Program-made: the position numbers and the translations under genes
Shown here: positions 15,769 to 50,374 of the stretch, in pieces
Layout: every line of letters begins with the position of its first letter
How positions within the stretch are numbered: the first letter of the stretch is position 1
The notes under the pieces: generated by a model
What the model was told of the DNA's origin: nothing
Database searches by the model: none
What the model saw: the letters and a program-made list of their open reading frames with translations, nothing else
Source of the DNA: Verrucomicrobiota bacterium
Lineage (GTDB): Bacteria > Verrucomicrobiota > Kiritimatiellia > RFP12 > UBA1067
Direction of reading: 5' to 3'
DNA length: 64,000 nt
NCBI GenBank assembly: GCA_050874585.1
Contig: JBNMKZ010000003.1
Coordinates: forward strand, 12,474-76,473

Positions 15769-17505
15769 TCAGGTTGATGGAAATCCAAGAATCCGCTCCT
15801 GCTCTGCCCAATCGTCGGTTTCGACCTTGCGGACTTTCTCCAGCGAAAAACCGTTAGGCAGGTCGCCGGTCATCGCAGCGCGAATAATCCGGGGCGAAAG
15901 AAACGCGAGGCGCAGCGTATAGCGCACGTAGTGGCGGTCTTCCTCGACGAGATCCGCCAGTTCGTGGACGGAGGACGCCTTGCCTTCGTCAATAAGCCGC
16001 AACCATGCGAATGCCCGCGCAATTGCCTTGAGAACCGCTCCCTGCGGAAGGGTGTTGTTGATCTCGCGCTGGGTTGGTCTCTGCGAGACCGAGCCGCCGT
16101 CCGTGCGGACGATCTTCTTGCGCCCGGACACCGTTCGGAAGGCGACCGGGATGCGCATGAAGAGGCATCCGTCGGCATCGATGCGCGTGTCGAATTCGCT
16201 GGTTGGCGTCGCAGGGATGCAGAGAGTCTTCACAAGTTCGTTTCGCGCATCGTCACACGGCATTTTGACGCGGATGTCGAGTGCCGATTCAAACACCGTG
16301 ACGGAACGGATGAAGAGACGGTAGATTGCCTTCCTGTCGTTCGTCGACAGCTGTTGCCAGAAGTCGTGGCGACGAAAGCCCGTGACGATCTGCTCGGGCG
16401 TGAAGGGGGTGACGTTTGCCGCCGCGACGAGCATCGTTGTAGAAGCCATCATGATCGATTCGAGTTCCTGTTCGATTGCTTCCTGCACGGTCGTTGCGCT
16501 GACATGGCGGATCGGACATTCTGAAACACCTTTGCGGGCATCTTGCTGGCAGATGAAGTAGGGATATTTCCGAACGCCGAGCGTATCCTTCTTCGACCAG
16601 CGGTAGGACATCGGATGCTGGCAATGGCCGCAGAAGATGAGCCCTTGATAAACGGCCGCCTCCGGCGTCATCTCTTTTTTCTCGCGGCTGCCCTTGGCGG
16701 CGTTGACGAGGTTGCGGACGCGATCCCAAAGTTCGCGTGTGATGAGCGCCTGTTGCTTGCCCTTGACGATCTTGCCGTGGCTGTTGGCATCGCCGACATA
16801 GCGGACGTTGCCAAGGCAATTGTAGACCGACTGCGTCGTCCATGCGCGTCCGGGGAAGCGTTCGATGCCTTCCTCGGCGAGTTTGGCCGCCACCTTCTTC
16901 GCTGAGTGGAGCTGGACAAACAACTCGAAGATGTGTGGGACGTTCTGCGCCGTCTTCGGGTCAGGGATGAGCGTCTGGTTCTCGACCTTGTAGCCGTAGG
17001 GCGGTATGCCGCCCACGAAGAAACCCTGGTCGAGGGCGGTCTTGAAGTGCTTTTGAATGCGCTCTTGAATCGTCTTGCGTTCCCATTGCCCGAACGAGAC
17101 GAGAAGGTTCACGACCAGCTCGCCCATCGGCGAGGAGGTGTCGACAAACGGCTCGGAGACGGAGGTGAATCCTACTCCGAGCTTCTTCATCTTCTCGTCG
17201 AACTCGCAGAAGTCCTTGGTACTGCGCGTCATGCGGTCGATTCGGAAGACGATGATCTTGTCGATGAGTCCCTGTTCGCATTGCGCCATGAGCCGCTGGT
17301 AGGCGGGGCGTTCGAGATTGCCGCCGCTGTAGCCGTAGTCATCGAATCGTTCGGGAAGGGCAATCCATCCCTCTGCCGCCTTGGCGGCGATGAAACTCTC
17401 GCACATCTGGCGCTGGGCATCGATGGAGTTGAACTGCTTTTCCTCTGAATCCTCGACGGACTTGCGCGTGTAAATCGCCACTCGGATCGTTTTCCCGTTG
17501 TTCAT
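15769..17505 (-). CDS. Large serine recombinase (phage integrase)
   Basis: Resolvase catalytic domain 'VAIYTRKSVEDS...IIVFRIDRMTRS', a recombinase domain and the zinc-ribbon 'CGHCQHPM'. 578 aa. Confidence 0.9.
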   Translation of the reverse strand: MNNGKTIRVAIYTRKSVEDSEEKQFNSIDAQRQMCESFIAAKAAEGWIALPERFDDYGYSGGNLERPAYQRLMAQCEQGLIDKIIVFRIDRMTRSTKDFCEFDEKMKKLGVGFTSVSEPFVDTSSPMGELVVNLLVSFGQWERKTIQERIQKHFKTALDQGFFVGGIPPYGYKVENQTLIPDPKTAQNVPHIFELFVQLHSAKKVAAKLAEEGIERFPGRAWTTQSVYNCLGNVRYVGDANSHGKIVKGKQQALITRELWDRVRNLVNAAKGSREKKEMTPEAAVYQGLIFCGHCQHPMSYRWSKKDTLGVRKYPYFICQQDARKGVSECPIRHVSATTVQEAIEQELESIMMASTTMLVAAANVTPFTPEQIVTGFRRHDFWQQLSTNDRKAIYRLFIRSVTVFESALDIRVKMPCDDARNELVKTLCIPATPTSEFDTRIDADGCLFMRIPVAFRTVSGRKKIVRTDGGSVSQRPTQREINNTLPQGAVLKAIARAFAWLRLIDEGKASSVHELADLVEEDRHYVRYTLRLAFLSPRIIRAAMTGDLPNGFSLEKVRKVETDDWAEQERILGFPST

Positions 17506-17524
17506 TTTGAAGTCCTTTCTCGTT

Positions 17525-17971
17525 TTATCCTCGATTGAGGCCCCACCATACGACGCCGTTGTAGTGGCTCTTGCCTGTGATGGCGCGGACGACGGCTGTC
17601 GGAGATGTGTAGATCTTCGACTCGTATTCGTATCGTCCGTTTCCGAGCGACTTCATTTCGTAAACCTTGCCGTGATATTCGCGCCTGTACGTGACACCGC
17701 GTTTGTCCTTTGCCGAGCGCGGTGCGTCTCGAAGTTCCTTGTTCGTCTTTGGATCGTGATTGGCAATGTAGGCGAGGGTTTCAAGTTCAGCGGGGGTCAG
17801 TCCACCCAAGGTGCGTTGCTGAATGCTGTAAGCGCATCGGGTTTGCATGAACCGCGCCCCAAAGACGGCGGCATTCACTCCCGTTAGCTCGCAGTATTTC
17901 CGTCGCAGCGTTTCAGGGTCAAGTTCCTGCAACGCGGCCAATTCCTGCTTGAGCTGTTCGCCTACTTTCAT
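17525..17971 (-). CDS. DUF2924-family protein (typical partner of large serine recombinases)
   Basis: 'LRRKYCELTG...RFMQTRCAYSIQQRTLGGLTPAELETL' matches the DUF2924 pattern as I recall it. ATG 17971 is chosen because the upstream AT-rich stretch looks non-coding. Confidence 0.65.
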   Translation of the reverse strand: MKVGEQLKQELAALQELDPETLRRKYCELTGVNAAVFGARFMQTRCAYSIQQRTLGGLTPAELETLAYIANHDPKTNKELRDAPRSAKDKRGVTYRREYHGKVYEMKSLGNGRYEYESKIYTSPTAVVRAITGKSHYNGVVWWGLNRG

Positions 17972-18129
17972 GTCCTTTTCGCCAGTTTGATTCAACGGTG
18001 GACATGATGCCGTAATGTCGGGCGAATAGCAACCGTCTATTTTACTATTCTTTATCATAAAACGCTCTTTCTTTGTCTTTTCAAGTGACGGCGAAGGAGC
18101 GATTTGAAGTCGCAACCCCGGCCTCCGCT

Positions 18130-18163
18130 CACGTTTTTCGAGGCCCAAGAGCGTTCAGTCCCG
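18130..18163 (-). promoter_or_regulatory. Copy 7 (minus strand) of the bipartite phage motif CGGGACT-N13-CCTCGAAAAACGTG, facing the DUF2924/integrase operon
   Basis: The + strand reads 'cacgtttttcgagg-cccaagagcgttc-agtcccg', the exact reverse complement of the motif with the same 13-nt spacer. Confidence 0.6.
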
Positions 18164-18238
18164 AAAATTTTGTCCTTTGAGAGGCGATGAGCGGAATTGT
18201 ATGATTTACATTGCCTTGTAATCTGCAAGTCATAGCCA

Positions 18239-18268
18239 TTGACATGGCAATGCAAAATGTGATATACT
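18239..18268 (+). promoter_or_regulatory. Sigma70-like promoter (TTGACA-N18-TATACT) for the cargo methylase
   Basis: 'ttgaca' at 18239-18244 and 'tatact' at 18263-18268. The -10 abuts ATG 18269, so GTG 18296 (after 'gaggtg') may be the real start. Confidence 0.5.
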
Positions 18269-28796: not shown

Positions 28797-30790
28797 TGAA
28801 ACTTCAAATCAAAAAGCTGTTTCTCGTCCAGCGCGGCACTCACGAACTGAAGGCCTACGACTTCGAGCCGGGAAAGCTCAACATCATTGTCGGACAAGGC
28901 GCACGTGGCAAGACGACCGTCTGGTCGATCATCGACTATGTGTGCTGTTCAAACGAGTGCGATATCGACAGCGACATCTCAAATGCAGTCGAGTGGGTGG
29001 GACTTCAGATTCTCACTCCTCTTGGCGTGTATGTCATCGCACGGGAGCTGAAGGACGAACTGAACGCGCAGAGTTCCGTTTACTACATGAAGCACCTTGA
29101 GGCCGATGTTTACGAGGTCGATGGTCTTGAAGTGAAGGCGAACTCGAATAAGGCGGCTGTGAAGGGATTGCTCGACCGCATTTGCGGGGTCGAGGCAATG
29201 ACTACCCAGGCCGACGAGAACGGACAGAAGATATCCTTTTCCATTAGGTATCTTCTTGAAATCGTGGGTCAGGACTATCGGACGCTCTCGGACCAGCAAC
29301 GACTGTTCGCCTGTCAGATTCCCCAGCAGGAGCAGACGGTCATCAAGTATTTCGCGTCGATTCTCGGAGTTCAGGCTGATGCCTTGAATCTGCTCCGAGC
29401 AGAAAAGCAGTCGACAGAGAAGGAACTCAAGCAGCTCAAGGATGAGTACAAGCGAGCTTTGTCCGTTTCCGAGACCTGGAAGAGCGACTTGTCAGATCAG
29501 TTGCTTGAGGCGAAGAAGCTGACGATGATCCCTGCGGACGTAGCAATTCCGAAAGACGTCGACAAGTGCCTTGAACTCGTCAAAAGCATCATCAGCGAGG
29601 CGCGTGAGAAGCCGATGGTATCGTATAATGTGGATCTGCTGGGTGAACTTGCGGAGAAGGTGACGAAGAACAAGGAGCGGAAGTCGGAGCTTGAAATCGA
29701 GATCGAGCAGCTCCAGGTGCGCATCGAGGAGCTTGAAGGGCTCGAGAAGAAGGCCGAAGCGATCCACAAGGAGGCTATTCGCGTGAAGGATCGCATGGAG
29801 ATCGCCAAGTGGATGGCGGCGAACTGGGGCGAATGTGAACAGACGTTCTTCCGCTATCCCTATTCCGATGGAAGGACGGCGGAGGAGGTTCGCGAAGAGA
29901 TATCCCGGCTGAATGCCGCGCTTTCGCAATACGAAAAGACTGCGTTGTCTAATGACAAGGTTCTTCAGTTCAAGAACCTGAACACGGCCGAGAAGAAGCG
30001 GCTCAAGGAACGCCAGACGAAGCTCGCGAAGGAAGTGGCCGAGCTGCGGAGAGAAATAGAGGGGCTGAAGAATCAAGGAAAGTCCGAGAAGGAGCGCATT
30101 GAACAATATGAAAGCGTCAACCAAAGGGCGCGAGAGTTGATCGGAAAACTTGGCAAGACCCAAGACCTTGTCGAGGGCTTGTCCGATGCGGGGGTGATTG
30201 CCAGAAAGATCGAGTCGCTCAAGGCAAAAGTCGACGCGCTTGAGCAGAAGGTCAATCTTGAAAAGGCCCGCGTCGAGGCAATGCAGAAGGACAAGCTGGA
30301 GGAGTTGTCGAGGCGTTCGTTTGAGATCGCCCAGGGAGTCGGGCTTAACGAGTCCTTTAACTTTGCCAATATTCTGTTTGATGCCGACAAGCTCGACTTC
30401 AAGATTCTTCGCGCCGATGGCGAAACCTACCTCAAGAATCGCAAGTCGACGGCAAATCATGTGGCGTTCCACATCGGGGTTACCGCAGCCATGCAGGAGA
30501 TCTGCGCGGGGAATGAGAAATCGTTGCTCCCGGATTTCGTCATTTACGACCAGCCGACACAGGGAAGAAGCGGTGTGGCGGGTGGTGAGAATGTCGGTGA
30601 GAGCTGCTTCGTGAATATCGCGAAGGAACTTTCTAAGTCGGTCGGATTGTCTGCCGAGCGGTGGCAGCCAATCTTGATTGATTCGTGGAGTCGCGAGACC
30701 TTGGATAAACTTGTCGGCGTGGAGTATCACCTTGTTGCTGATCTTGACACGACGAAAGGTTTGGTCCCCGTCGATTGGATGAAAGCATGA
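28796..30790 (+). CDS. DUF3732-type SMC/Rad50-like ABC ATPase with a long coiled-coil insert
   Basis: Walker A 'GQGARGKTT', 'IIDYVCCS' (DUF3732-like), about 300 aa of heptad-rich coiled coil, and Walker B 'FVIYDQPTQG' near the C-terminus. Confidence 0.75.
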   Translation: MKLQIKKLFLVQRGTHELKAYDFEPGKLNIIVGQGARGKTTVWSIIDYVCCSNECDIDSDISNAVEWVGLQILTPLGVYVIARELKDELNAQSSVYYMKHLEADVYEVDGLEVKANSNKAAVKGLLDRICGVEAMTTQADENGQKISFSIRYLLEIVGQDYRTLSDQQRLFACQIPQQEQTVIKYFASILGVQADALNLLRAEKQSTEKELKQLKDEYKRALSVSETWKSDLSDQLLEAKKLTMIPADVAIPKDVDKCLELVKSIISEAREKPMVSYNVDLLGELAEKVTKNKERKSELEIEIEQLQVRIEELEGLEKKAEAIHKEAIRVKDRMEIAKWMAANWGECEQTFFRYPYSDGRTAEEVREEISRLNAALSQYEKTALSNDKVLQFKNLNTAEKKRLKERQTKLAKEVAELRREIEGLKNQGKSEKERIEQYESVNQRARELIGKLGKTQDLVEGLSDAGVIARKIESLKAKVDALEQKVNLEKARVEAMQKDKLEELSRRSFEIAQGVGLNESFNFANILFDADKLDFKILRADGETYLKNRKSTANHVAFHIGVTAAMQEICAGNEKSLLPDFVIYDQPTQGRSGVAGGENVGESCFVNIAKELSKSVGLSAERWQPILIDSWSRETLDKLVGVEYHLVADLDTTKGLVPVDWMKA

Positions 30791-31506
30791 AGCTGCTTCT
30801 TGCTGAGATAGAGAATGTCCGCGAATGTATCCGCAAGCTGGATGCAGACGAGATTACCGACAAGACCAAAGTGGCGGAGGAGCGGGCATATCTGGTCCGA
30901 TGCTTCGACCGTCGCGAATCCCCAATCCTGTATCTCGGCGAGATCTTGAAGGACGAGCTTGGCGAATCCAAGGCGGACAAAGCCAAGTCGGCTGAGATCG
31001 ACGCATTGATCGAAGACGTGCTGAACGACATTGAGGAATCCGGCTATGTTGGTCTCAATCCAAAGTATCCAATCAAGAGGCGCAGGGGAAGGCCGTCAGG
31101 CACGACTCGGCATAAGCCACTCAACCCTCGCACTCGTGTGAATCTGACCGAACACGGATATCGGTTTTCGATGACGTCTGACTTCTCGTGCATCCTTGAT
31201 GAACTCCATAAGCCGCCGGAGTACAAGATTTCGATGTATGAAGGGCTTACGGCTGATAAAGCAATCGAAGTGATCAAGACGTTGGTTGAAGCGGCTAAGG
31301 CGAAGAAGAACGAGGGCTGGGTCAAATCCGAATCTTGGTGGCGTGGCGCGTTTCAAAAAGACGTGTATCTTCGTTTCCGGGACGAGCAGATACAACGCGG
31401 CAAGAAGGCCAATGGACATAACGGCGAGTGGAGAATCATAACCGACGGGGAATTTGACTCTCTTTCTGCTAAAGGCAAATATCACTTTAGGGACAATGTA
31501 AACTGA
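30787..31506 (+). CDS. Hypothetical protein with an AT-hook-like motif, translationally coupled to the ATPase
   Basis: ATG 30787 overlaps the ATPase TGA (ATGA). 'KRRRGRPSGT' has the AT-hook core RGRP. 239 aa. Confidence 0.55.
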   Translation: MKLLLAEIENVRECIRKLDADEITDKTKVAEERAYLVRCFDRRESPILYLGEILKDELGESKADKAKSAEIDALIEDVLNDIEESGYVGLNPKYPIKRRRGRPSGTTRHKPLNPRTRVNLTEHGYRFSMTSDFSCILDELHKPPEYKISMYEGLTADKAIEVIKTLVEAAKAKKNEGWVKSESWWRGAFQKDVYLRFRDEQIQRGKKANGHNGEWRIITDGEFDSLSAKGKYHFRDNVN

Positions 31507-31565
31507 TTTCCGATTCGGGAAATTTACAGCTGATTTTTCGTTTACAGCTAAATTGAGCGGTAGAG

Positions 31566-31594
31566 CGCGGAACTTAACGGTTCCGCGTTTTTTT
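31566..31594 (+). terminator. Rho-independent terminator closing the cargo block
   Basis: Stem cgcggaac / gttccgcg with loop ttaacg, then a T7 run. Confidence 0.7.
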
Positions 31595-31991
31595 ATGCCC
31601 TTTTAACGCCTTTTCAGGCGGCATTAAATTTTTGTTTTACCCTGATGACTTGAACACCGATTTACAGACATGATGGTGGCAGTTCTTTGAGCGAATAGTC
31701 GCCTGTTGCCAAGGCTCGCTCATGGAATTAGCAGCACAACAGCTGCGGAAAGAACTGGCCATGGGCAATAGCCATCGTGTGATGCAGACCATCCCGTGCG
31801 TTTCCGAGGTGATTTTCGTCGGTTTTGAGATTACGGAACAAATCTCAGAGCTGGCAACAAACATCTTTGCCGCTCTGGGAGATGCCTGCTTCATTTTTGG
31901 CAATTGACCACTCGGCAAGAGGCAGACGCGAACCTGCCCGCTTCGCCGGGTGACGAGGGTCTTTGGAAATCTGAAAAAAGTTTGGATTTTT

Positions 31992-32025
31992 CGGGACTGG
32001 GAAGGTTCGGGCCTCGAAAAACGTG
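31992..32025 (+). promoter_or_regulatory. Copy 1 of the bipartite motif, ~50 nt upstream of the sigma-factor gene
   Basis: 'cgggact-gggaaggttcggg-cctcgaaaaacgtg' with a 13-nt spacer. Confidence 0.6.
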
Positions 32026-32072
32026 GCTGCGGGGCGGAGATCGTCTCGCGGCACACAGAAAGGAAAACGAAA

Positions 32073-32645
32073 ATGAAGAAGCCCGAAGTCAGGCTGGAGG
32101 ACACGTTCCCCGCCGTCACCATCAAGTACGTCAACTCGAAGGTCCGCAAGATGACGATCATCTACGGCTTCACGCCGCACGAGGCGGAGGACTTCCGCCA
32201 GAGTATGTACCTCAAACTCGTCAAGGCACTTGACCAGTTCGACCCGAAGCGCGGCGCGAAGCTCGAGACCTTCCTCCATTGCTGCGTCGACAACTTCGCG
32301 AAGGACTACATCACGAAGCTGCGCCGTCCGCAGAAGATCGTGCGCACCGTGTTCGTCCTCGACTCGCCCGTCCGCCGTTGTTCCGTCGACGGCGAGGAGG
32401 AGATTCCGATGATCGAGACGATCCCCGACGAGTCGATGCCGGGGCAGATGCTCGCGGACATCCGCAGCGACGTGAGGAGCGTCCTCGCCCGCCTTGACGA
32501 CCTGCCGCGCCGCATCTGCGAGATGCTCATGGCGGGCGTCGAGAAGCGCGAGCTTCCGAGGCGTCTCGGGATCTCCAAGACGCGCTTCTACGGCGTCGTG
32601 TTCCCACAGCTCAAGGCGCAGTTCAAGGATCTGCTCGATTCCTGA
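32073..32645 (+). CDS. Phage-encoded ECF-like sigma-70 family sigma factor
   Basis: Region 2-like 'AEDFRQSMYLKLVKALDQFDPKRGAKLETFLHCCVDNFAKDYITKLRR'. Region 4 HTH-like 'LPRRICEMLMAGVEKRELPRRLGISKTRFYGVV'. 190 aa, with RBS 'agaaagga'. Confidence 0.7.
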   Translation: MKKPEVRLEDTFPAVTIKYVNSKVRKMTIIYGFTPHEAEDFRQSMYLKLVKALDQFDPKRGAKLETFLHCCVDNFAKDYITKLRRPQKIVRTVFVLDSPVRRCSVDGEEEIPMIETIPDESMPGQMLADIRSDVRSVLARLDDLPRRICEMLMAGVEKRELPRRLGISKTRFYGVVFPQLKAQFKDLLDS

Positions 32646-32652
32646 AAAAGTT

Positions 32653-32686
32653 CGGGACTGAATCTCCCCGGACCTCGAAAAACGAG
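32653..32686 (+). promoter_or_regulatory. Copy 2 of the bipartite motif, upstream of the recombination/replication operon
   Basis: 'cgggact-gaatctccccgga-cctcgaaaaacgag'. It starts 8 nt after the sigma gene stop. Confidence 0.6.
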
Positions 32687-32731
32687 GCCGCGGGGAGTGA
32701 AGACGCGAAAGCGCAGAAGGGAAAAGAAAAC

Positions 32732-33577
32732 ATGAACAAGACAAGATCAGACTATCCGTTCTTCGCCGACATCCCGGCGGAGCAGTATCACCAGGACGCC
32801 CGCGACGGGAAGTTCCTTTCGAGCCATCTGCTCGGCGACTTCCGCAAGTGTCCGCTCACCTACCACCAGAAGATGACGGGCGTGATCCCGCCGCAGGACT
32901 CCGCCGCCTACTGGATGGGCCGTGCCGTCCACACGCTCGTCTGCGAGGGACGCTCCGTGTTCGACAAGGAGTTTCTCGTCACGGACGGGCCGGTGAATCC
33001 GAAGACGGGGGAGCCGTTCGGAAAGCTCACGAAGGCGTACAAGGAGTGGGCCGCTGCGCAGACGCTCGTCCCGGTCAGCACAACCGACTTCGGCTTCATG
33101 GTCAAGCTCCAGAGCGCGGTGTGGCTTCACCCGATCGCGACGCGCCTCTTCGACGGCGGCTGGGCCGAGGGGACGGTGCGCACGGAGTACAACGGCGAAC
33201 CCGTGCAGATCCGAATCGACTATTTCAATCCGAACTTCGTCGATGACACGACGGGCGCGAAGGGCGCGATCATCGACTTGAAGACCTGCGACACCATCGA
33301 CTTCTTCGAGTCCGACGCCCGCAAGTACGGCTACATGCACCAGCTCGCCTTCTACCGCGAGGTGATGCGCATCGCGTCGGGAGAGGAGTTCCCCGTGTAC
33401 ATCGTCGCCGTCGAGAAGAAGGCTCCGTTCAGGGTCGGCGTGTGGAAGCTCGCCACCGAGGCGCTGGACGAGGCGAAGGCCGCGAACGAACGCGCACTCT
33501 CGCTTCTCCGCGAATGCCGCTGCCAGAACGTCTGGCCGACCGGCTACGAGGAACTCCGCGTCATGGACAGCATCTGA
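32732..33577 (+). CDS. PD-(D/E)XK exonuclease (DUF3799/RecE-like)
   Basis: 'GAIIDLKTCD' D-x-K core and the 'YGYMHQLAFY' QxxxY motif. Confidence 0.7.
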   Translation: MNKTRSDYPFFADIPAEQYHQDARDGKFLSSHLLGDFRKCPLTYHQKMTGVIPPQDSAAYWMGRAVHTLVCEGRSVFDKEFLVTDGPVNPKTGEPFGKLTKAYKEWAAAQTLVPVSTTDFGFMVKLQSAVWLHPIATRLFDGGWAEGTVRTEYNGEPVQIRIDYFNPNFVDDTTGAKGAIIDLKTCDTIDFFESDARKYGYMHQLAFYREVMRIASGEEFPVYIVAVEKKAPFRVGVWKLATEALDEAKAANERALSLLRECRCQNVWPTGYEELRVMDSI

Positions 33578-33618
33578 AATCCATCCACCCAAACACACAA
33601 GCAAGAAAGGCAGAAATT

Positions 33619-34362
33619 ATGTCTCTTATCGGTTCAATCACCAAGGGCCGCGAACAGCAGCCGCCCCGCATCATGGTCTACGGCGCGGAGGGCGTCGGCA
33701 AGTCCACCTTCGCGTCACTCGCGCCGAGCCCCGTTTTCGTCCAGACCGAGGACGGCCTCTCGGAGATCGACACGTCGAAGTTCCCGCTGGCGCGGACGTT
33801 CGAGGACGTCGTGATGCAGCTCCAGGCCGTGCGCGACGAACAGCACGAGTACGGTACGCTCGTCATCGACTCGGTCGACTGGCTGGAGCGTCTCGTGTGG
33901 GACCGCGTGTGCGCCGACTACGGCGTGAAGTCAATCGAGAAGGCCGACGGGGGCTACGGGAAGGGGTATGTCCACGCGCTCACCTACTGGCGTCAGATCG
34001 TCTCGATCCTGAACGACATCCGTTCCAAGCGCGGCATGGCCGTGATCCTGATCGCACACGCCGCCGTCGAACGCTTCGAGGACCCGGAACACGAGGCCTA
34101 CGACCGCTACACGCCCCGGATTCACAAGAAGGCGTGTTCGCTCATCTGCGAGTGGGTCGATGCCGTTCTCTTCGCCTCGCGCCGTCTTCGCGTCGATTCG
34201 ACGACGGGCAAGGCCGCCCCGGTCGGCGCGGACGGCGGCGAGCGCATCCTCCGCACCAACGGCTCCCCGGCCTGCATCGCGAAGAACCGCTTCGGGCTTC
34301 CGACGGAACTTCCGCTCTCGTGGGCCGCGTTCGTCGAGGCGCTGAAGGGAGGTGCCAAATGA
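33619..34362 (+). CDS. AAA_24/Sak4-like RecA-fold ATPase
   Basis: Walker A 'VYGAEGVGKST', Walker B 'LVIDSVD'. The upstream Arg-rich part of track ORF 33442.. is rejected. Confidence 0.75.
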   Translation: MSLIGSITKGREQQPPRIMVYGAEGVGKSTFASLAPSPVFVQTEDGLSEIDTSKFPLARTFEDVVMQLQAVRDEQHEYGTLVIDSVDWLERLVWDRVCADYGVKSIEKADGGYGKGYVHALTYWRQIVSILNDIRSKRGMAVILIAHAAVERFEDPEHEAYDRYTPRIHKKACSLICEWVDAVLFASRRLRVDSTTGKAAPVGADGGERILRTNGSPACIAKNRFGLPTELPLSWAAFVEALKGGAK

Positions 34363-34604
34363 AGCGGCAGGTGACGGTTCTCTCTGCGGCGGTCGTGTGC
34401 GACCGCTGCGGCGAGACGATCCGGGCGGGCGAGAGGGCAATCGTCGAGTTCGACGAGAAGAGCGGCAAGTGCCGCTTCCTCCACGAGACCTGCCCCGACC
34501 AGTCCGAGACGGCGAAGGTTCCCCGTCCGCGCAGTCCGAGAGTTTCAGTCCGTGGCGCAGTCCGCGCCCGTTCCGAGAAAAACACCAAGAGAAAGGTTAG
34601 GTAA
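34359..34604 (+). CDS. Small zinc-ribbon-like protein
   Basis: ATGA overlap with the upstream stop. 'CDRCGETI...CRFLHETC'. 81 aa. Confidence 0.45.
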   Translation: MKRQVTVLSAAVVCDRCGETIRAGERAIVEFDEKSGKCRFLHETCPDQSETAKVPRPRSPRVSVRGAVRARSEKNTKRKVR

Positions 34605-34609
34605 AGAAA

Positions 34610-35074
34610 ATGGCACAGTTGAACTTCGATGCCAACGAGGTCCAGCCGCTGGAGGCCTACGAGGCGATCCCGGCGGGAGAGTACGAGGCGGTCATCACGG
34701 ATTCCGAGATGAAGCCCAACAAGGCGGGGACGGGTACGTTCCTCGAGCTGAAGACGGAGATCGTCTCGGGCGACCTTGCGGGTCGCAAGCTGACCGCCCG
34801 CCTGAACCTGAACAACCCCAGCACCAAGGCCGTGGAGATGGCCCGCCGCGAGCTGTCGGCGATCTGCCATGCGGTCGGCGTCCTCCGCCCGGCGGATTCC
34901 TCGGAGCTGCACAACCGTCCGCTACTCATGAAGGTGAAGCTCGTGAAGCGCGACGACGGCACCGCCTCGAACGAGGTCGGCGGCTGGAGGGCGAAGGAGG
35001 CGGCCGCGCCCGCGACCCCGACGGCGGCGGCGAACGCCCAGGCCGCGCAGGGGACCGCACCGTGGAAGCGGTAA
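34610..35074 (+). CDS. DUF669-family phage protein (SSB-like partner of AAA_24 ATPases)
   Basis: 'FDANEVQPLEAYEAIPAGEYEAVITDSEMKPNKAGTGTFLELKTEIVSG', a typical DUF669 N-terminus and gene order. Confidence 0.65.
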   Translation: MAQLNFDANEVQPLEAYEAIPAGEYEAVITDSEMKPNKAGTGTFLELKTEIVSGDLAGRKLTARLNLNNPSTKAVEMARRELSAICHAVGVLRPADSSELHNRPLLMKVKLVKRDDGTASNEVGGWRAKEAAAPATPTAAANAQAAQGTAPWKR

Positions 35075-35412
35075 GCGTCGAGCTGCCGTGGCCGCCCAGC
35101 GTGAACCGCTACTACCGGGTGTTCCGAAACCGAATCCTCATATCGAGGGACGGACGGAAGTACAGGATGGTGGCGGTGTCGAGGCTGGGCGGCCTCAATC
35201 GGAAGCTCACGGGGGAGGTGTCGGTCGAGATCGACCTCTATCCCCCGGACCGTAGGAGGCGCGACATCGACAACCCGCTGAAGTGCCTCCTCGACTCGAT
35301 GACCCACGCCGGGGTCTACGAGGACGATTCGCAGATCAAGGACATCGAGCTGCACATGCGAGAGCCGATGCCCCCGGAGGGAATGGTGCATGTGACCTTA
35401 AAGGAGAAATGA
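35062..35412 (+). CDS. rusA: RusA-family Holliday junction resolvase
   Basis: 'LPWPPSVNRYY...DIDNPLKCLLDSMTHAGVYEDDSQI'. GTG 35062 is the first in-frame start. Confidence 0.8.
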   Translation: MEAVSVELPWPPSVNRYYRVFRNRILISRDGRKYRMVAVSRLGGLNRKLTGEVSVEIDLYPPDRRRRDIDNPLKCLLDSMTHAGVYEDDSQIKDIELHMREPMPPEGMVHVTLKEK

Positions 35413-35414
35413 CA

Positions 35415-35672
35415 ATGTCGGACAAAGGAAACGAGGAGCGGGAGTTCATCCCGGAGTGGCGCAGAAGGCTTGAGGCGAAGAAGAAGATCGTGCAGGAGTT
35501 CATGGAGAGCCTCGACGACGACACGCTCTTCCGCGCCGCGCTCCTCTTCATGCTGGGGAACGACGATGCCGCCGTCATGAAGGAGATGAAGCTCGACGAG
35601 TTCGCCTTGAAGTCGATCAAGGAGCGGCTCGAGACGGGGCTTCGCCTTGCGGGGATCGAAACGAGGAAGTAG
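35415..35672 (+). CDS. Hypothetical small protein
   Basis: 'aaggag' lies 8 nt upstream of ATG 35415. 85 aa. Confidence 0.5.
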   Translation: MSDKGNEEREFIPEWRRRLEAKKKIVQEFMESLDDDTLFRAALLFMLGNDDAAVMKEMKLDEFALKSIKERLETGLRLAGIETRK

Positions 35673-35675
35673 GCG

Positions 35676-37391
35676 ATGATGACCTTGAGGGACTACCAGT
35701 CCGACGCCGTCGCTTCCGTATGGAAGCATCTGCGCGAGAAGGACACCAACCCGTGCGTCGTGATACCGACCGCCGGGGGAAAGTCCCTCTGCATCGCGCA
35801 GGTGGCGAAGGACGCCGTGACGAACTGGGGCGGGCGCGTCCTGTGCCTTGCGCACGTCAAGGAGCTGATCGAGCAGAACGCGGCGAAGATCAGGGCGATC
35901 TGCCCGGAGCTGAAGGTCGGCGTGTACTCGGCGGGCCTCGACAGCAGGGACACGAGTGAGCCGGTCATCGTCGCTGGCATCCAGTCGATCTGTGGACACG
36001 CGGATCTCTTCAAGCCGTTCGACATCATCATGGTGGACGAGGCGCATCTCATTCCGAGCGAAGGCGAGGGACGTTACCGCACCTTCCTCGCCGAGATGAA
36101 GGAGCGCAATCCGAACGTCCGTCTGATCGGATGGACGGCGACGCCGTACCGCACAAAGGGCGGCCTCATCTGCAGGCCGGAGAACCTCCTGAACGAGGTG
36201 TGCTACGAGATCTCCGTGAAGACCCTCATAAACCGTGGCTTCATCTCGCATCTCGTCTCGAAGTCCGGGACGGTCAAGCCAGACCTCTCGAACCTGCACA
36301 TCCGCGCGGGCGAGTTCGTCCAGGAGGACATTGACGCGGCGATGGGCGACGATTCAATCGTCACCTCGGCCTGCCGCGAGATCGTCGACCTCACGAAGAA
36401 CCGCAAGACGTGTCTCATCTTCTGCACGTCCGTGAAGCATTGCGAACGGGTGGCGGAGCTGATCCGGCGATTCTCCGGCGAGGAGTGCCCCGTTGTGACG
36501 GGCGACACGCCCCCGGAGGAGCGGGCGGACACCATCCGCCGCATGAGGGGCGAGACAGTCAAGGTCGGGCTCTTCGACGAGGAGTTGAAGCCGATCCGCT
36601 ACTGCTGCAACGTCTCGGTTCTCACGACGGGGACGGACATTCCGAACATCGACACGGTCGTTCTCCTGCGTCTGACCGCCAGTGCGGGGCTTCTCGTGCA
36701 GATGGTCGGGCGCGGCTTCCGGCTCTCGCCCAAGACGGGCAAGACCGAGTGCCTCGTCCTCGACTACGGGAAGAACATCGAGCGTTTCGGATGCATCGAC
36801 CAGATCAAGGCGACCGAGCCGAAGGGCGGACCCCGCGAGGGACCGCTGGCGAAGGAGTGCCCCCAGTGCCGGACGATGATGCCGCTGGCGCAGATGTGCT
36901 GCCCGAACTGCGGCTACCTCTTCGAGCGCAAGGAACGCGAGACCCATCTCGACTCCCGCGCCTCGTCCCTCGGAATCATATCAGGCGAAGTGGTCGACGA
37001 GGACTACGATGTCCGCGACGTGGACTACCGCGTGTGGCTCAAGCGGGATGCGAAGCCGGGTGCGCCGAGGACGGTTAGGATCACCTACACGATTGACCTC
37101 ATGACGCAGTTCTCGGAATGGCTCTGCCCGGAACACAGCGGCTACGCCCGCAAGAAGTTCGAGACGTGGTGGAAGAAGCACACCCTTGAGGGAACGCCTA
37201 TGCCCGGAACCGCCGACGATGTCTGCGAGTTCGCGTTCATGGGCATGATCCGCCAGCCGAGGAAGATCGCGGTGCGGCGCGTCTCCGGGTCGAAGTACCC
37301 GGAGATCATCGGGTACGAACTCGCCGACGAGCCGGAGAAGGTCGCTCCGTCGGAATCCGAGTACATGGAAGATGACGACCTTCCGTTTTGA
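35676..37391 (+). CDS. SF2 (DEAD/DEAH-box) DNA helicase with a C-terminal zinc ribbon
   Basis: 'LRDYQSDAV', motif I 'PTAGGKS', motif II 'MVDEAH', Zn ribbon 'CPQCRTMM...CPNCGY'. Confidence 0.8.
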   Translation: MMTLRDYQSDAVASVWKHLREKDTNPCVVIPTAGGKSLCIAQVAKDAVTNWGGRVLCLAHVKELIEQNAAKIRAICPELKVGVYSAGLDSRDTSEPVIVAGIQSICGHADLFKPFDIIMVDEAHLIPSEGEGRYRTFLAEMKERNPNVRLIGWTATPYRTKGGLICRPENLLNEVCYEISVKTLINRGFISHLVSKSGTVKPDLSNLHIRAGEFVQEDIDAAMGDDSIVTSACREIVDLTKNRKTCLIFCTSVKHCERVAELIRRFSGEECPVVTGDTPPEERADTIRRMRGETVKVGLFDEELKPIRYCCNVSVLTTGTDIPNIDTVVLLRLTASAGLLVQMVGRGFRLSPKTGKTECLVLDYGKNIERFGCIDQIKATEPKGGPREGPLAKECPQCRTMMPLAQMCCPNCGYLFERKERETHLDSRASSLGIISGEVVDEDYDVRDVDYRVWLKRDAKPGAPRTVRITYTIDLMTQFSEWLCPEHSGYARKKFETWWKKHTLEGTPMPGTADDVCEFAFMGMIRQPRKIAVRRVSGSKYPEIIGYELADEPEKVAPSESEYMEDDDLPF

Positions 37392-37399
37392 GAAAGGCA

Positions 37400-37768
37400 A
37401 TGGAGATGGACAGGGAGAAGATTCACGAACTGATGTTCAGGCTCTGGTGGTGGGCGCGTGTGTATGCGATCTACGCCGCGATCCTGTTCGCGATCCTGTG
37501 GGCGGTCGCGAACTGCTGCGCGGGATGCGCGAACGAATCGCCGTCCGCGCCGAAGCGGGAGGCGGCGGCCGCCCCGCCGACGCTCCTTTCCGAGCGTCTC
37601 TCCGGGATGATGGAGGAGATGCGGCGGGCGGGATGCTGGCCGATGGAGTTCTCGGTGTCGTTCTCGCCGCCGACGAACTACTCGGTCTCGGTCACCGGCA
37701 AATACTACGATGCGCTCGACCGCAACCGCACCAACCTCGTCAACCGAAACGAAGGGAAAGGGAACTAA
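37400..37768 (+). CDS. Hypothetical membrane protein
   Basis: One TM segment 'VYAIYAAILFAILWAVANCCAGC'. The track start at 37388 is TTG. Confidence 0.45.
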   Translation: MEMDREKIHELMFRLWWWARVYAIYAAILFAILWAVANCCAGCANESPSAPKREAAAAPPTLLSERLSGMMEEMRRAGCWPMEFSVSFSPPTNYSVSVTGKYYDALDRNRTNLVNRNEGKGN

Positions 37769-37771
37769 AAG

Positions 37772-37924
37772 ATGGACTGTCTCATTGGAAGTGGGCTTTG
37801 CCCCGTGAAGCGCGAGCTTCTTCACTGGAAGCGCACGGCGCACTATTTCGCCGCCCTGGCGATGGTGAACTTCATCGCCGCCTGGGCGATTGCGCTCTAC
37901 AAGGCGACGGGAGGTGTGCATTGA
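37772..37924 (+). CDS. Putative 50-aa membrane micro-protein
   Basis: The ATG comes 4 nt after the upstream stop. Hydrophobic 'FAALAMVNFIAAWAIALY'. Below the ORF-track cutoff. Confidence 0.3.
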   Translation: MDCLIGSGLCPVKRELLHWKRTAHYFAALAMVNFIAAWAIALYKATGGVH

Positions 37925-38199
37925 GGAACTCGAAGCAGAACTGCCGCCACTTCGTTTCGCCTTTCGGGCGTTGGCTCGGCGACACGCGGGTGACGAAGGC
38001 CGCCGTGATGCGCCGTCCGGGAATGCCGCATCCGACGAGGATGCGGTGCGCGGGCGCGTTGTCCTCGTCGAGCGGACGTCCGGGACTGCCGCCGCATTGG
38101 AATCCGAGGATGGATGCCGAGGCGATGGCGCGGATGCGCGAGGAGCTGGCGATGATGGCCGAGCTTGACGCGATGGTCCCGATGTGGAGGTTCGGGTGA
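37921..38199 (+). CDS. Putative 92-aa protein (TTG start)
   Basis: 'gggagg' lies 6 nt upstream of TTG 37921, overlapping the previous stop. This is the C-terminal part of track ORF 37372..38199, whose upstream part is off-frame over other genes. Confidence 0.3.
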   Translation: MRNSKQNCRHFVSPFGRWLGDTRVTKAAVMRRPGMPHPTRMRCAGALSSSSGRPGLPPHWNPRMDAEAMARMREELAMMAELDAMVPMWRFG

Positions 38200-38330
38200 T
38201 GAGATGTTCGCAATGCGACCGTCGCAGGGAATGCGGCGAGTCGGAGAGGCCCTCGTGTCCATACGGCGTTGAGCCGGTCATGAGGGGGAGTGAGGAAACC
38301 GATCACGAAGCAAGGGAGGACAGGCCGTGA
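38199..38330 (+). CDS. Putative 43-aa Cys-rich micro-protein
   Basis: ATGA overlap with the previous stop. 'MRCSQCDRCRECGESERPSCPYG'. Confidence 0.3.
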   Translation: MRCSQCDRRRECGESERPSCPYGVEPVMRGSEETDHEAREDRP

Positions 38331-38449
38331 GCGTCATGTTCGTCCTGTCGCTCTTCGCTATCGCCTACGGGGTCGGAAGCGGCCTCGGCGCGGTCGGCGA
38401 GGGGTTGAAGGAAATAGCGCGGGCTTTGAGCCGCGCGGGAAGGGGCTGA
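38327..38449 (+). CDS. Putative 40-aa membrane micro-protein
   Basis: GTG 38327 overlaps the previous TGA. 'gggagg' lies upstream. 'VMFVLSLFAIAYGVGSGLGAV'. Confidence 0.3.
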   Translation: MSVMFVLSLFAIAYGVGSGLGAVGEGLKEIARALSRAGRG

Positions 38450-38453
38450 TCGT

Positions 38454-40679
38454 ATGTCTAAAGTGCCGATTGAACTCGCAGAGAGCTACCGCAAGGCAGG
38501 CCTTGCCGCGCTCCCGGCCGCTAAAGCGAAGAAGCGGCCTTCCATCGGCGGCTGGAAGACATGGTCGAAGCGCCTGCCCACCGAGATGGAGATCGCCGCA
38601 TGGTTCGCCAACAACCAGGACGGGATCTGCATCGTGGCGGGTGCCGTGTCGGGGAACCTCGAGTGCATCGACTTCGACGCACACGGCGAGCTGTACCCGG
38701 CGTGGAAGGAAAAGGTCGCCCCGGAGGTGTTCGCCCGGCTCGTGGTCGAGCGGACGCCTTCGGGCGGCCTTCATGTCCTCTACCGCTGCGAAGAGCCGGT
38801 CGAGGGGAACAGGAAGCTCGCGCAGGGAATGCGCGAAGGGAAGAAGACGACGCTCGTCGAGACGCGCGGGGAGGGAGGTCTCTTCCTGTGTGCGCCTACC
38901 GAGGGGTACGTGCTCCTTCAGGGCGACTACGCCTCGCTGCCCGTCCTTTCGGGAGAGGCGCGAGAAGCCCTCCTGTCGGCGGCGGTGGCGATGAACGAGT
39001 GCGTGGACGAGTTGAGGCCCACGGAGGGCACACAGGCGCAGGATTCGGCCTTTCTGGTGAAACCGGGGGACGATTGGTGCGCACGGGGCGACATCCGCCC
39101 CGTCCTGATGGCCCACGGGTGGAAGTATCTCGGCGTGAAGCCGGACGGGAACGAGCTGTGGCAGCGCCCTGGGAAGTCCGGGGACGGCAACTCGGCGACC
39201 TTCAACGGGCAGATCCTCTGCGTCTTCTCGACGAACGCCGCGCCGTTCGAGGCGAAGGGCTACAACAAGTTCCAGGTCTATGCGCTCCTTGAACACGGGG
39301 GCGACTTCACGGCGGCGGCGAAGGCGCTGCTCGACAAGGGGTTCGGAAGGTCGGAGGACTACACGTCAGACGTCGACCTTTCGGGCGTACTGAAGCAGGG
39401 TGTGAAGGGTGCGCCGCCGGAGGACGATGACGAGAAGCACACATCGGTCGCAGACCCGGGCGTGATCCCGGAGGAGCTGCTGTCGGTTCCGGGGTTCATC
39501 AACGACCTCATGAACTACACGCTGCGGACGGCCTACTACCCGAACAAGGCGCTCGCGTTCGCCGGTGCGCTGGCGATGCTTGCACACCTCACCGGGCGGC
39601 GGTTCAAGGACCAGAGGGGCAGCCGCTTCAACATCTACCTTCTCGCCCTCGCGAAGTCCGGCGTGGGCAAGGAGCATCCGCGCGGGACGAACATCGACCT
39701 CGCGACGCAGATGGCGTTCATATCGGAACTCGGAGACACCTTCGCATCGGGCGAGGGTCTCGAGGACTCGATGTGCCAGTCGCCATCCATGCTCTACCAG
39801 GTGGACGAGATCGACTACCTCTTCAACACGGTGAAGCTGAAGGACTCGCGGGCGGAGCAGATCAACTCGATGCTGCTGAAGCTCTACTCCGAGTCGAAGA
39901 CTACGCACATCATGAGAAAGAAGGCGATTCAGCGCGGTGCGCCCCCGGTCGGGACGGCAATCGTGCAGCCGCACCTCACGATGTTCGGAACCGCGACGCC
40001 GAAGTTCTTCTACCAGTCGCTCACCGAGCGGACGATGGAGAACGGGCTTCTTGCGCGTTGCATCGTCCTCGAGGCTGGGGAGCGCGGCACGGCTGGCGAA
40101 CCGCACGAGGAGGACTTCCCGGAATCGGTGATCGACACCGTCCGCAACCTGATCCGCCTCGGACACGAGAACAACCTCACGGGGGAGTTCCCCCGTCCGC
40201 TCGTCCTGCAGGAGAACCCGGACGCGACGAACCGCATCCGCGAGATCCTCGGCTATGCGGACGAGGAATACCGCAAGGCGTCCGAGCGAGGCGACGATTC
40301 GGCGAACGCGCTCTGGGCCCGTGCGGGGGAGAAGGTGCTGAAGCTCGCCGCCATCTACGCGATCAGCGAGAACGCGGTCGAGCCGGTGATCACCATCGAC
40401 GGCGTGAACTGGGCGTGGCGGTTCATCGAACACATGACGCGGCGGATGCTGTTCATGGCCTCGATGTTCGTGGCGGACACGGACTTTGACGCGCAGGCGA
40501 TGAAGGTAATCCGGCTCGTCCGGCAGAAGCGCGGCCGCATCTCGCACGGGAAGCTTCTGCGCAACTCGCATCTCGACAAGGATGCGTTCAAGCGCGTGGT
40601 CGAGACGCTCATCGAAAGCGGAACTCTCCGCAAGGAGTTCGGCGACAGAGGCGGAGTGTTCTATGTGTTGACGGAATGA
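38454..40679 (+). CDS. Bifunctional primase-polymerase (Prim-Pol) fused to a DUF3987-type helicase/ATPase domain
   Basis: N-terminus 'YRKAGLAALPA...KRPSIGGWKTW...ICIVAGAVSGNLECIDFD...TPSGGLHVLY' (Prim-Pol). The C-terminal half is DUF3987-like ('YLLALAKSGVGKE'). Confidence 0.75.
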   Translation: MSKVPIELAESYRKAGLAALPAAKAKKRPSIGGWKTWSKRLPTEMEIAAWFANNQDGICIVAGAVSGNLECIDFDAHGELYPAWKEKVAPEVFARLVVERTPSGGLHVLYRCEEPVEGNRKLAQGMREGKKTTLVETRGEGGLFLCAPTEGYVLLQGDYASLPVLSGEAREALLSAAVAMNECVDELRPTEGTQAQDSAFLVKPGDDWCARGDIRPVLMAHGWKYLGVKPDGNELWQRPGKSGDGNSATFNGQILCVFSTNAAPFEAKGYNKFQVYALLEHGGDFTAAAKALLDKGFGRSEDYTSDVDLSGVLKQGVKGAPPEDDDEKHTSVADPGVIPEELLSVPGFINDLMNYTLRTAYYPNKALAFAGALAMLAHLTGRRFKDQRGSRFNIYLLALAKSGVGKEHPRGTNIDLATQMAFISELGDTFASGEGLEDSMCQSPSMLYQVDEIDYLFNTVKLKDSRAEQINSMLLKLYSESKTTHIMRKKAIQRGAPPVGTAIVQPHLTMFGTATPKFFYQSLTERTMENGLLARCIVLEAGERGTAGEPHEEDFPESVIDTVRNLIRLGHENNLTGEFPRPLVLQENPDATNRIREILGYADEEYRKASERGDDSANALWARAGEKVLKLAAIYAISENAVEPVITIDGVNWAWRFIEHMTRRMLFMASMFVADTDFDAQAMKVIRLVRQKRGRISHGKLLRNSHLDKDAFKRVVETLIESGTLRKEFGDRGGVFYVLTE

Positions 40680-40688: not shown

Positions 40689-40724
40689 GGGAGTCTTGCC
40701 TGATGGCAGGGCTCCCTTTCTGTT
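40689..40724. terminator. Bidirectional terminator between convergent operons
   Basis: 12-bp stem gggagtcttgcc / ggcagggctccc (two G-U pairs) with loop tgat, then 'tttctgtt'. Confidence 0.6.
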
Positions 40725-41458: not shown

Positions 41459-41842
41459 TTAATTCCTCTCGGCGAGATTGCGGAGATATGTGGCCGAGCG
41501 TTCGACCGCACTCCATATGCCCAGCATGGCGAAAAGCAATAGGCCGCTTGTGATGGCGGCAATGCCTGCGTCGAACTGGAGGAGCAGGCACAGAAGTATC
41601 CCGCCGATTACGCCGATGTAGGCAAACACATTCAAGACCTTGAAACTCAGAGGCATATCGACAACAATCGGTGTGCCCTTGGCTTTCTGCTGCGAATGCT
41701 GCCGAATCCCTCCTGTCGCGCTGTTCAGCGGCTTGCCGCACGACCAGCACAACGGTCTGTCCCGGTCGTTGTTAGTCCCGCAGTAGGGACACTTGACCTC
41801 GCGCCCGAAAACCTCGCCATTTGCTTCCGTCGAATATCCCAT
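41459..41842 (-). CDS. Zinc-ribbon membrane protein
   Basis: 'CPYCGTNN...CWSCG' followed by two TM segments. Confidence 0.5.
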   Translation of the reverse strand: MGYSTEANGEVFGREVKCPYCGTNNDRDRPLCWSCGKPLNSATGGIRQHSQQKAKGTPIVVDMPLSFKVLNVFAYIGVIGGILLCLLLQFDAGIAAITSGLLLFAMLGIWSAVERSATYLRNLAERN

Positions 41843-41877
41843 TGAATGCCTCCTTCACTTCTTGTTGTTGTGTTTCG

Positions 41878-42024: not shown

Positions 42025-42027
42025 GGC

Positions 42028-42378: not shown

Positions 42379-42384
42379 ACTGCG

Positions 42385-43869: not shown

Positions 43870-44072
43870 CGATTGCCTCGCGGCGCAAATGTTGTGCGCC
43901 TCGCGCGCGGGCGCGTGTGCTCGTGTGCGCGAGAGAAGCCGGACGCCCCAAGCGAAAGAGGGGAACGATGCCCTCGTGTCAACGGAGCGTCCGACCGCCG
44001 ACCATTCTACCACCCGTCTTGCGGACGAGTCAACGGCCCCGCGCCGCCTTTTCCAACTTTTTTCAGAAACTT

Positions 44073-44106
44073 CGGGACTGAACCCCCTCGGGCCTCGAAA
44101 AACGTG
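44073..44106 (+). promoter_or_regulatory. Copy 3 of the bipartite motif, ~280 nt upstream of the ParB-methylase gene
   Basis: 'cgggact-gaaccccctcggg-cctcgaaaaacgtg'. Confidence 0.55.
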
Positions 44107-50154: not shown

Positions 50155-50374
50155 CGGGACTGGAGAGGGTCGGGCCTCGAAAAACGTGAGTGCGGAAAGG
50201 ATCGTGTGCGGTTCGCAATCCGGCTTTCGGAAAAATCTTCGGATTTTTCGGGACTGGAATACCCCGGGCCTCGAAAAACGTGCCTGCGGAAAGGATCGCA
50301 TCGGTCGCCGCGAGATCTTCGCGTGAATCTTCGGATTCGCCGGGACTCGGCGGCGTCGGGCCTCGTAAAACGTG
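50155..50374 (+). promoter_or_regulatory. Copies 4-6 of the bipartite motif as a tandem array (period 92-94 nt) upstream of the C5-methylase/head operon
   Basis: CGGGACT at 50155, 50249 and 50341. Each is followed after exactly 13 nt by CCTCG(A/T)AAAACGTG at 50175, 50269 and 50361. Confidence 0.6.

Follow-up and report, generated by a model that had tools for sequence, protein, structure and literature searches.

We analysed a 64,000-nucleotide (nt) stretch of the genome of a Verrucomicrobiota gut bacterium (class Kiritimatiellia; GenBank assembly GCA_050874585.1, contig JBNMKZ010000003.1, positions 12,474 to 76,473), referred to below as the window, in which a prophage encodes a 190-amino acid (aa) sigma-70 family protein and carries seven copies of a long bipartite motif. 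Ordinary genes of the cell occupy positions 1–15151 (amidohydrolase, MFS transporter, lactonase, glycosyltransferase and ABC ATPase), and this host part ends at a tRNA-Val gene (15075–15151). Prophage genes follow, beginning with a minus-strand block from 15152 that comprises a 219-aa open reading frame (ORF), a large serine recombinase and a DUF2924 gene. Then come a 13-kb plus-strand block of defence cargo, the sigma gene (32073..32645, +), a recombination/replication operon (32732–40679), a short block of genes without assigned function that lies partly on the minus strand, an operon encoding a ParB-N6/N4 methylase, MetK and the large terminase (44384–50133), and a late operon that runs from 50520 to the window end.

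Seven copies of a bipartite motif at operon 5′ ends

A pattern search allowing up to three mismatches found seven matches to CGGGACT-N13-CCTCGAAAAACG in the window. Five on the plus strand, starting at 31992, 32653, 44073, 50155 and 50249, are exact; the copy at 50341 (+) carries one mismatch and reads CCTCGTAAAACG; and the sole minus-strand site lies at 18163..18132, which corrects the coordinates of 18130–18163 given in the initial annotation, where seven copies had been reported. Their number is borne out statistically: 0.02 matches were expected by chance, and none of 100 dinucleotide-preserving shuffles contained that many. With up to four mismatches allowed, the window yielded no further site. 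We also built a weight matrix from 17 sites of the motif family and ran it over the 64 kb; a matrix scan had been proposed at the outset, for the whole genome and related phages. Only the seven sites scored high, at 57.7–72.5 bits, against −22.2 bits for the next best position, and no degenerate copies were present in the window. The motif is therefore a discrete, all-or-none class rather than the upper end of a graded distribution.

The spacer had been described as fixed at 13 nt and variable in sequence, and both properties held up when GGGAC-N8..22-CTCGAA was sought in the window and all related loci: 53 occurrences had the standard spacing, and the only three with other spacings all lacked the motif's flanking signature, the one in the window (54208) lying inside the protease-capsid gene. 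In the alignment of sites, an A/T-rich tract stands immediately 5′ of an invariant CGGGAC(T), followed by the spacer, a second conserved block, (tc)GGgCCTCGAAaAACG, and a weaker G-rich tail. Such a tail had been proposed as GTGnnTGCGG-like; it exists, but is only partly conserved, with the consensus g...GcgGg. The spacer is not conserved and shows neither covariation nor conserved pairing, and the bipartite motif lacks any dyad or direct-repeat symmetry that would suit a dimer. The A/T tract precedes the copies in a phage of roughly 62% GC and is weakest at 50341.

All seven copies are inside the prophage, in non-coding DNA and in the same orientation as the operon downstream, and sites were found at operon 5′ ends only. 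This agrees with what had been claimed for their placement, with non-coding status now judged from homologue-supported start codons (ATG 32073 for the sigma gene, ATG 18058 for the DUF2924 gene). Copy 1 (31992..32023, +) precedes the sigma gene as its candidate autoregulatory promoter and occupies the same place in the related loci examined; directly 5′ of it, the A/T-rich tract seen in the site alignment (31968..31991, +) is UP-element-like. Copy 2 (32653..32684, +) begins 8 nt past the sigma stop codon, in the 86-nt gap between the sigma and DUF3799 genes, and is the predicted promoter of the recombination/replication operon, which encodes a DUF3799 exonuclease, AAA_24, DUF669, RusA, a DEAD helicase and PrimPol. 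Copy 3 (44073..44104, +), conserved in three related loci (L004, L016 and L022), is the predicted promoter of the methylase/MetK/terminase operon.

Copies 4–6 (50155..50186, 50249..50280 and 50341..50372, all +) stand in tandem, 92–94 nt apart, as the first, second and third predicted promoters before the late operon, which encodes a C5 methylase-HNH protein, portal, protease-capsid, head-tail genes and tape measure; one related locus (L012) has two tandem copies at the matching position. Copy 7 (18132..18163, −), conserved in L020 and L023, is the predicted promoter of the operon running from 18058 down to 15152, in which Pfam identifies the DUF2924 gene and the serine integrase (15769..18058, −). 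Five copies end 47–279 nt before the start codon, each of these starts having a Shine–Dalgarno-like AGGA/GGGA; the tandem copies at 50155 and 50249 are more distant from the 50520 start. Host DNA at 1–15151 of the window contains no copy, in keeping with the earlier statement that the motif is restricted to the prophage.

A two-domain protein of the sigma-70 family

The start codon of the sigma gene, ATG 32073, encodes the same methionine in all eight clusters of its close homologues. Its 190-aa product matches Pfam Sigma70_r2 (PF04542) over residues 34–85 with 43 bits against a cutoff of 24, and PHROG 351 (phrog_351, RNA polymerase sigma factor) at 2e-16. Regions 2 and 4 had both been proposed from the translation; Pfam supports the first and has no match for the second, for which the evidence comes from other sources. 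The general sigma70-ECF (extracytoplasmic function) model TIGR02937 aligns, below its cutoff, across residues 25–171. Compared as a family profile with the PDB, residues 40–70 align with region 2.1–2.2 of Mycobacterium tuberculosis SigB, including the core-binding signature DF-RQ...KF...R, and the stretch from residue 99 or 103 to residue 171 aligns with region 4, both in M. tuberculosis SigB and in SigF. The AlphaFold (AF2) model (predicted local distance difference test score, pLDDT, 71.6) consists of a three-helix N-terminal domain (helices within 14–94), a low-confidence, disordered linker and a four-helix C-terminal helix-turn-helix (HTH) domain (124–189). Essentially all Foldseek matches in the PDB are sigma factors, and several of the best are full-length matches to the M. 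tuberculosis ECF factors sigmaH and sigmaL in initiation complexes.

An exhaustive profile search recovered 974 relatives at E ≤ 1e-3, mostly of ~190 aa among the 150 matches listed. When the window protein was aligned with 26 relatives (alignment A4), Sigma70_r2 was found in all 27 sequences, Sigma70_r4_2 in four and Sigma70_r4 in two. The 190-aa protein thus belongs to the sigma-70 family and has two domains and the size of an ECF factor. Its predicted make-up of sigma2 and sigma4, without region 1.1 or region 3, is that of ECF sigmas, which are ~170–220 aa long, and the specific ECF models all score far under their cutoffs. A tblastn search of 50,697 GenBank phage records gave no match. The initial annotation recognised no anti-sigma gene, and likewise neither Pfam nor PHROGs detected an anti-sigma domain in the ORFs neighbouring the sigma gene; the adjacent gene is that of the DUF3799 exonuclease, behind its own motif copy.

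Motif and sigma gene are inherited together

Close homologues of the sigma protein form only eight clusters (at 90% identity), 97–52% identical to the window protein, and all those with a named source derive from Kiritimatiellota gut metagenome-assembled genomes (MAGs). In every one of these loci the sigma gene stands ahead of the same recombination/replication module; the genes upstream differ. Eight prophage lineages carry both the sigma gene and the motif. In six of them (sigma identity 97, 80, 78, 77, 74 and 58%) the motif lies on both sides of the gene, at the same distance 5′ of it and again in the short gap before DUF3799. In these six lineages the boxes and their spacing are kept, and spacers and flanks have diverged. 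The most divergent of the eight, L010 (52%), has the motif 5′ of its sigma gene and the DUF2924 and recombinase genes directly 3′ of it, with the next motif copy preceding the replication module; the integrase would thus again be under the same predicted control.

Dispersed sites have changed in concert. In the 58% lineage one A-to-T change is common to the three copies seen there, which read CGAATAAC instead of CGAAAAAC, and the 52% lineage has the variants CGGGACA and AAAAAGA/ATAAAG. Such a pattern suggests that the reader is encoded by the element that carries the sites. Across these lineages the predicted sigma4.2 helix, SKTRFYG(V/M)VFP, is nearly invariant, as the CGGGAC box is invariant, two of nine sequences differing by one residue each (SRTRFYA and SRTRFYGT); the sigma2 helix expected to read the −10 box varies. 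A more distant locus of 1.25 kb (L029, 34% sigma identity) keeps the A-tract and GAATAAC in the homologous sigma–DUF3799 gap, with TCTCGGT in place of CGGGACT and a different sigma4.2 helix, PEWSIRQQI. That the −35-like box differs where the helix differs is suggestive only, being a single case.

We scanned one genome per species for 185,579 species (596 Gb). The motif with its full flanking signature was confined to Kiritimatiellota MAGs and one 2.6-kb contig; seven matches in unrelated phyla were single and without the flanks. In the species-representative MAG, which contains a 97%-identical phage, all copies are on two phage contigs, so that the motif is not common in the host. IMG/VR viral contigs contained no exact match, and scanning them with the sigma profile gave one weak, uninformative fragment (L025, 34%). 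In JGI metagenomes the sigma profile found no relatives, and a degenerate motif scan returned 32 single matches, none of them with the A/T tract, a GGG preceding CCTCG or the tail, and none near a sigma gene; we rejected these as chance matches.

The 2.6-kb contig (L022, CAAGNU010000220.1) was binned with Bacteroidales. It covers the region of copy 3 and matches the Kiritimatiellota phage locus L004, with which it is identical over an 85-nt stretch around the motif, and it is probably a binning error in that MAG. A Kiritimatiellia MAG (JAZUHK01) has an orphan perfect motif with the full flanking signature (L013, 2660–2691, −), adjoining a tRNA gene and ruvC on an otherwise unrelated contig and followed only by a 13-codon ORF. 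This orphan may have been left behind by a prophage, or it may be part of a different element using the same promoter.

Host-type promoters ahead of the defence cargo

The 13-kb cargo is the only large plus-strand block of the prophage that lacks the motif. It encodes an N6 methylase, a complete type I restriction-modification (RM) system (HsdM, HsdS and HsdR), YgjP and a Lamassu/ABC-3C cassette of an LmuA-like protein, MC3 and LmuB (the last at 2e-61). Before this operon lie two canonical sigma-70-type promoters (18177..18268, +), TTGAGA-17-TATGAT and TTGACA-18-TGnTATACT, which match the consensus at 10 of 12 and 11 of 12 positions, one with an extended −10. Judged by their boxes, these predicted promoters show that host housekeeping promoters are of the usual type here and that the motif is a different class. 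By contrast, the interval 31000–33000, with the two intergenic regions that hold the sigma-flanking copies, contains no sigma-70-type promoter consensus. PADLOC gave no match for the sigma protein; we considered the sigma gene as part of the defence cargo and rejected this, as its synteny is with the replication module and the cargo upstream varies between phages.

A predicted self-amplifying sigma regulon

We consider it probable that the sigma gene and the seven sites constitute a self-amplifying phage sigma/promoter regulon, the best reading of the sequence evidence. The sites would form one phage-specific promoter class, read by host core RNA polymerase together with the 190-aa phage sigma. 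Sigma4 would read the invariant CGGGAC as a −35-like box and sigma2 the (G)CCTCGAAAAAC box as a −10-like element (GGGAC-N16-TCGA); in copy 1 the candidate boxes are CGGGAC and TCGAAA. The upstream A/T tract would serve as an UP-like element, and transcription is predicted to start ~7 nt past TCGAAA, within the conserved G-rich tail, near 32025 for copy 1. With copy 1 ahead of the sigma gene, sigma expression would be self-amplifying through positive feedback. The sigma would switch on its own gene and the DUF2924/serine-integrase, replication, methylase/MetK/terminase and head-tail operons, the three tandem copies boosting the structural operon, and the defence cargo (type I RM, Lamassu) would be left to host sigma-70-type promoters. 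The interpretation put forward in the initial annotation, a phage transcription regulon that includes the integrase, is to this extent supported as far as sequence analysis goes, and none of the refuting conditions stated there that such analysis could address came true.

The arrangement GGGAC-N16-TCGA(AAAAC) equals in geometry the ECF layout GGAAC-N16-CGTT, which is the EcfG consensus (PMC7083833). The −10-like box resembles the TCAAA of sigmaE promoters, which also have an A/T-rich UP region upstream, and ECF sigma genes are typically autoregulated (PMC2893595). Autoregulated ECF promoters have an AAC-containing −35 box and a CGT-type −10 box 16–17 nt apart; the sites here have this spacing, and their boxes differ in sequence, with GAC for AAC and TCGA for CGT. 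Among phages, a precedent is gp36 of phiEco32, a distant sigma homologue that drives middle and late promoters (PMC12276001).

Several observations weigh against this interpretation. Formal ECF membership of the protein is unproven because TIGR02937 scores 40.4 bits, under its cutoff of 42.9, so that ECF-like here denotes size and architecture; region 4 also escapes Pfam. The −35-like box has GAC, not the nearly invariant AAC of ECF promoters. No host-type promoter or trigger was found for the first synthesis of sigma. The conserved block, at ~45–50 nt and including the GG just 5′ of CCTCGAA and the tail, carries more information than the usual sigma contacts would explain, so that a second factor, or a role at the RNA level, may be overlaid on it. 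Other conserved phage proteins without assigned function could in principle read the motif. Finally, a 9.5-kb fragment with a 30%-identical sigma (L026) has no repeated motif among its intergenic regions.

It is unlikely that the motif is instead the promoter class of a host sigma, for example a host ECF factor, perhaps aided by a phage activator, with the phage sigma acting elsewhere. ECF-like geometry would fit such a factor equally well, no trigger for the phage sigma gene was found, and the orphan copy in L013 adjoins a tRNA gene without a sigma gene nearby. A host reader would nevertheless have to be reconciled with the absence of copies from the window's host DNA and from the representative MAG outside its phage contigs, and with a motif that is invariably inherited with the phage sigma gene, on whose flanks it lies. 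The lineage-specific concerted change favours a reader on the same element, and the phage sigma would be left with no other recognisable target motif.

We regard as quite improbable a second explanation, in which the motif is or contains the operator of a phage repressor that silences the lytic and integrase operons in the lysogen, in the manner of the oriented "stoperator" repressor sites of mycobacteriophage L5. No repressor, repressor-like HTH protein or anti-sigma was recognised among the conserved genes without assigned function, and two half-sites separated by a fixed, non-conserved 13-nt spacer offer no dimer-type symmetry. A lysogen must silence all these operons together, and oriented, intergenic, multi-copy sites in a temperate phage, with a conserved block that exceeds a sigma footprint and includes the tail, would be in character for an operator; yet the sites occur at operon 5′ ends only, the block is longer than 32 nt, and the intergenic regions flanking the sigma gene have no recognisable host-type promoter to repress. 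An operator can coexist with the sigma-dependent promoters proposed here, as a promoter with an overlapping operator.

It is very unlikely that the conserved block acts in RNA, whether as a 5′ leader, as an element for processing or stability, or as a signal for antitermination. Several leaders do open with a hairpin that involves the conserved GCGG tail, part of the tail forming the 5′ arm, and for the sigma leader the folding energy is −19.9 kcal/mol (z = −4.6). Yet the sigma leader alone folds significantly; for four of the seven leaders in the window, folding was no stronger than in shuffled sequence, and none has an Rfam match. The 13-nt spacer lacks covariation or conserved pairing, and an upstream promoter, of which none is seen, would still be required; in the sigma–DUF3799 gap the motif begins 8 nt past the sigma stop codon. 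The sigma leader hairpin is kept in L001 despite sequence changes. Rfam at gathering thresholds recognised only the tRNA-Val in the window, and a permissive E-value over 43300–44400 gave only noise. All three alternatives explain less well than a phage sigma reading its own promoter class why the motif is bipartite with a fixed spacing, why it stands where operons begin, why host DNA lacks it and why it is inherited with the sigma gene.

The region upstream of the sigma gene

The ~490-nt region 5′ of copy 1 holds a 61-aa ORF, three TTTACAG repeats and a GC hairpin. The hairpin, a conserved palindrome (CTTCGCC-GGGT-GACGAGG; 31941..31958, +), lies upstream of the sigma-gene copy only, 34–51 nt 5′ of the motif. 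Seven lineages retain it, and a T-A pair has been replaced by C-G between lineages, a compensatory change. The hairpin is a candidate insulator, terminator or control element and a candidate gate for the sigma feedback loop. The region as a whole may gate read-through or bind a regulator. We distrusted a long-range structure that RNAalifold proposed 5′ of the sigma promoter, since only the local 6–7 bp hairpin was consistently kept. The three repeats and the 61-aa ORF (31722–31907), which together lie within 31520–31907, are conserved in L018 and L006 and absent from other relatives with the same sigma. ORFs at 30775–31907, 15152–15811, 40964–43297 and 47097–47600 gave no informative Pfam or PHROGs match.

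Tentatively, a broader model can be outlined, which we hold to be possible and rather doubtful. This temperate phage would lack a classical repressor–operator switch for its lytic genes, and one self-amplifying sigma/promoter pair would run integration/excision, replication, packaging and morphogenesis; the lysis–lysogeny decision would be the ignition of the loop, with the sigma-specific hairpin and upstream elements as its gate. If true, a phage of an uncultivated phylum would have a bistable switch built on a sigma factor, and its sigma/promoter pair would be naturally orthogonal.

Relation to known systems

The protein resembles group 4 ECF sigmas such as EcfG and Escherichia coli sigmaE in its length of ~190 aa and in its predicted make-up of sigma2 and sigma4 only, and it shares with ECF sigmas a predicted cognate bipartite site 5′ of its own gene, with the same 16-nt spacing and A/T-rich DNA upstream. 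It differs in being phage-encoded and in that no adjacent anti-sigma gene was found; an adjacent cognate anti-sigma is common, not universal, for ECF sigmas. Its predicted sites are almost identical instead of forming a graded regulon, their −35 is CGGGAC, not GGAAC, and their −10 is TCGAAAAAC, not CGT. For comparison, the boxes of E. coli sigmaE promoters are GGAACTT and TCAAA (PMC2893595).

Gp36 of phiEco32 is likewise a distant phage sigma homologue, which redirects host core RNA polymerase to a phage-specific consensus (PMC12276001). That phage is lytic and relies on host sigma70 for its early genes; its gp36 promoters consist of one −10-like element, AATGTA, and depend on the co-factor gp79. 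The present phage is temperate and its site bipartite, and one class would serve integrase, replication, packaging and morphogenesis. Phage sigmas that replace the host sigma to time expression include gp28 and gp33/34 of SPO1 and gp55 of T4. SPO1 and T4 use successive sigmas and several promoter classes, in contrast to the single sigma, single class and positive autoregulation predicted here. In T7-type promoters the 23 bp of the site are contiguous, and a single-subunit phage polymerase recognises them. They too are few, long and near-identical, all-or-none, placed before phage operons and absent from the host; the present prophage, unlike T7-type phages, has no phage polymerase gene, and its site is bipartite with a variable spacer.

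The redirection of host RNA polymerase by a phage sigma is a long-established principle, and the conceptual gain is moderate. What would be distinctive is the combination of a temperate phage, one autoregulated class covering nearly everything including the integrase, and a phylum without characterised phages. Kiritimatiellota is an almost uncultivated gut phylum whose phages are essentially undescribed, and our literature search found no paper on them. The locus offers a complete, testable wiring diagram of one sigma, seven predicted promoters and five transcription units including that of the integrase. If the proposed regulon is real, a temperate phage runs nearly its whole programme from one autoregulated sigma, the pair would be very stringent and probably orthogonal for use in synthetic biology, and in metagenomes the motif would be a marker with which to find and delimit prophages of this family and to place the boundaries of their operons.

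Other features of the prophage

A strong terminator-like hairpin (40689–40716) ends the replication operon. The large terminase (47851–50133) is encoded not with the head genes but in the preceding operon, 5′ of the predicted tandem late promoters. The phage's investment in DNA methylation is unusually heavy (genes at 44384–52847 and the cargo methylases): beyond the methylases of the cargo it has its own MetK, an S-adenosylmethionine synthetase (45832–46857), the ParB-N6/N4 methylase and the C5 methylase-HNH fusion. One ORF on the plus strand extends from 59473 through the end of the window, spans at least 1509 codons with a third-position GC content (GC3) of 0.88, and contains ~11.5 tandem repeats of 111 nt (37 aa) at 61261–62541; it is probably the tape measure protein (59473–64000). 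Minus-strand "genes" called at 59601–62910 were rejected as frame shadows of this ORF.

Between copy 3 and the start of the ParB-methylase gene lies a leader of ~280 nt (44105–44383), conserved in L004, L016 and L022 and without a match in Rfam. As it is conserved in all reading frames, the conservation is at the nucleotide level. The region at 43610–43880, also conserved at the nucleotide level in the same three loci, has at least eight iterons, (A/C)GTTCGCA / TGCGAACG, in both orientations around an AT-rich stretch (43790–43850), and looks like a replication origin. Terminator-like hairpins lie near it at 43538–43603, and a candidate sigma-70-type promoter on the minus strand (44033..44004; TTGACT-18-TGnTAGAAT) is directed into the iteron region.

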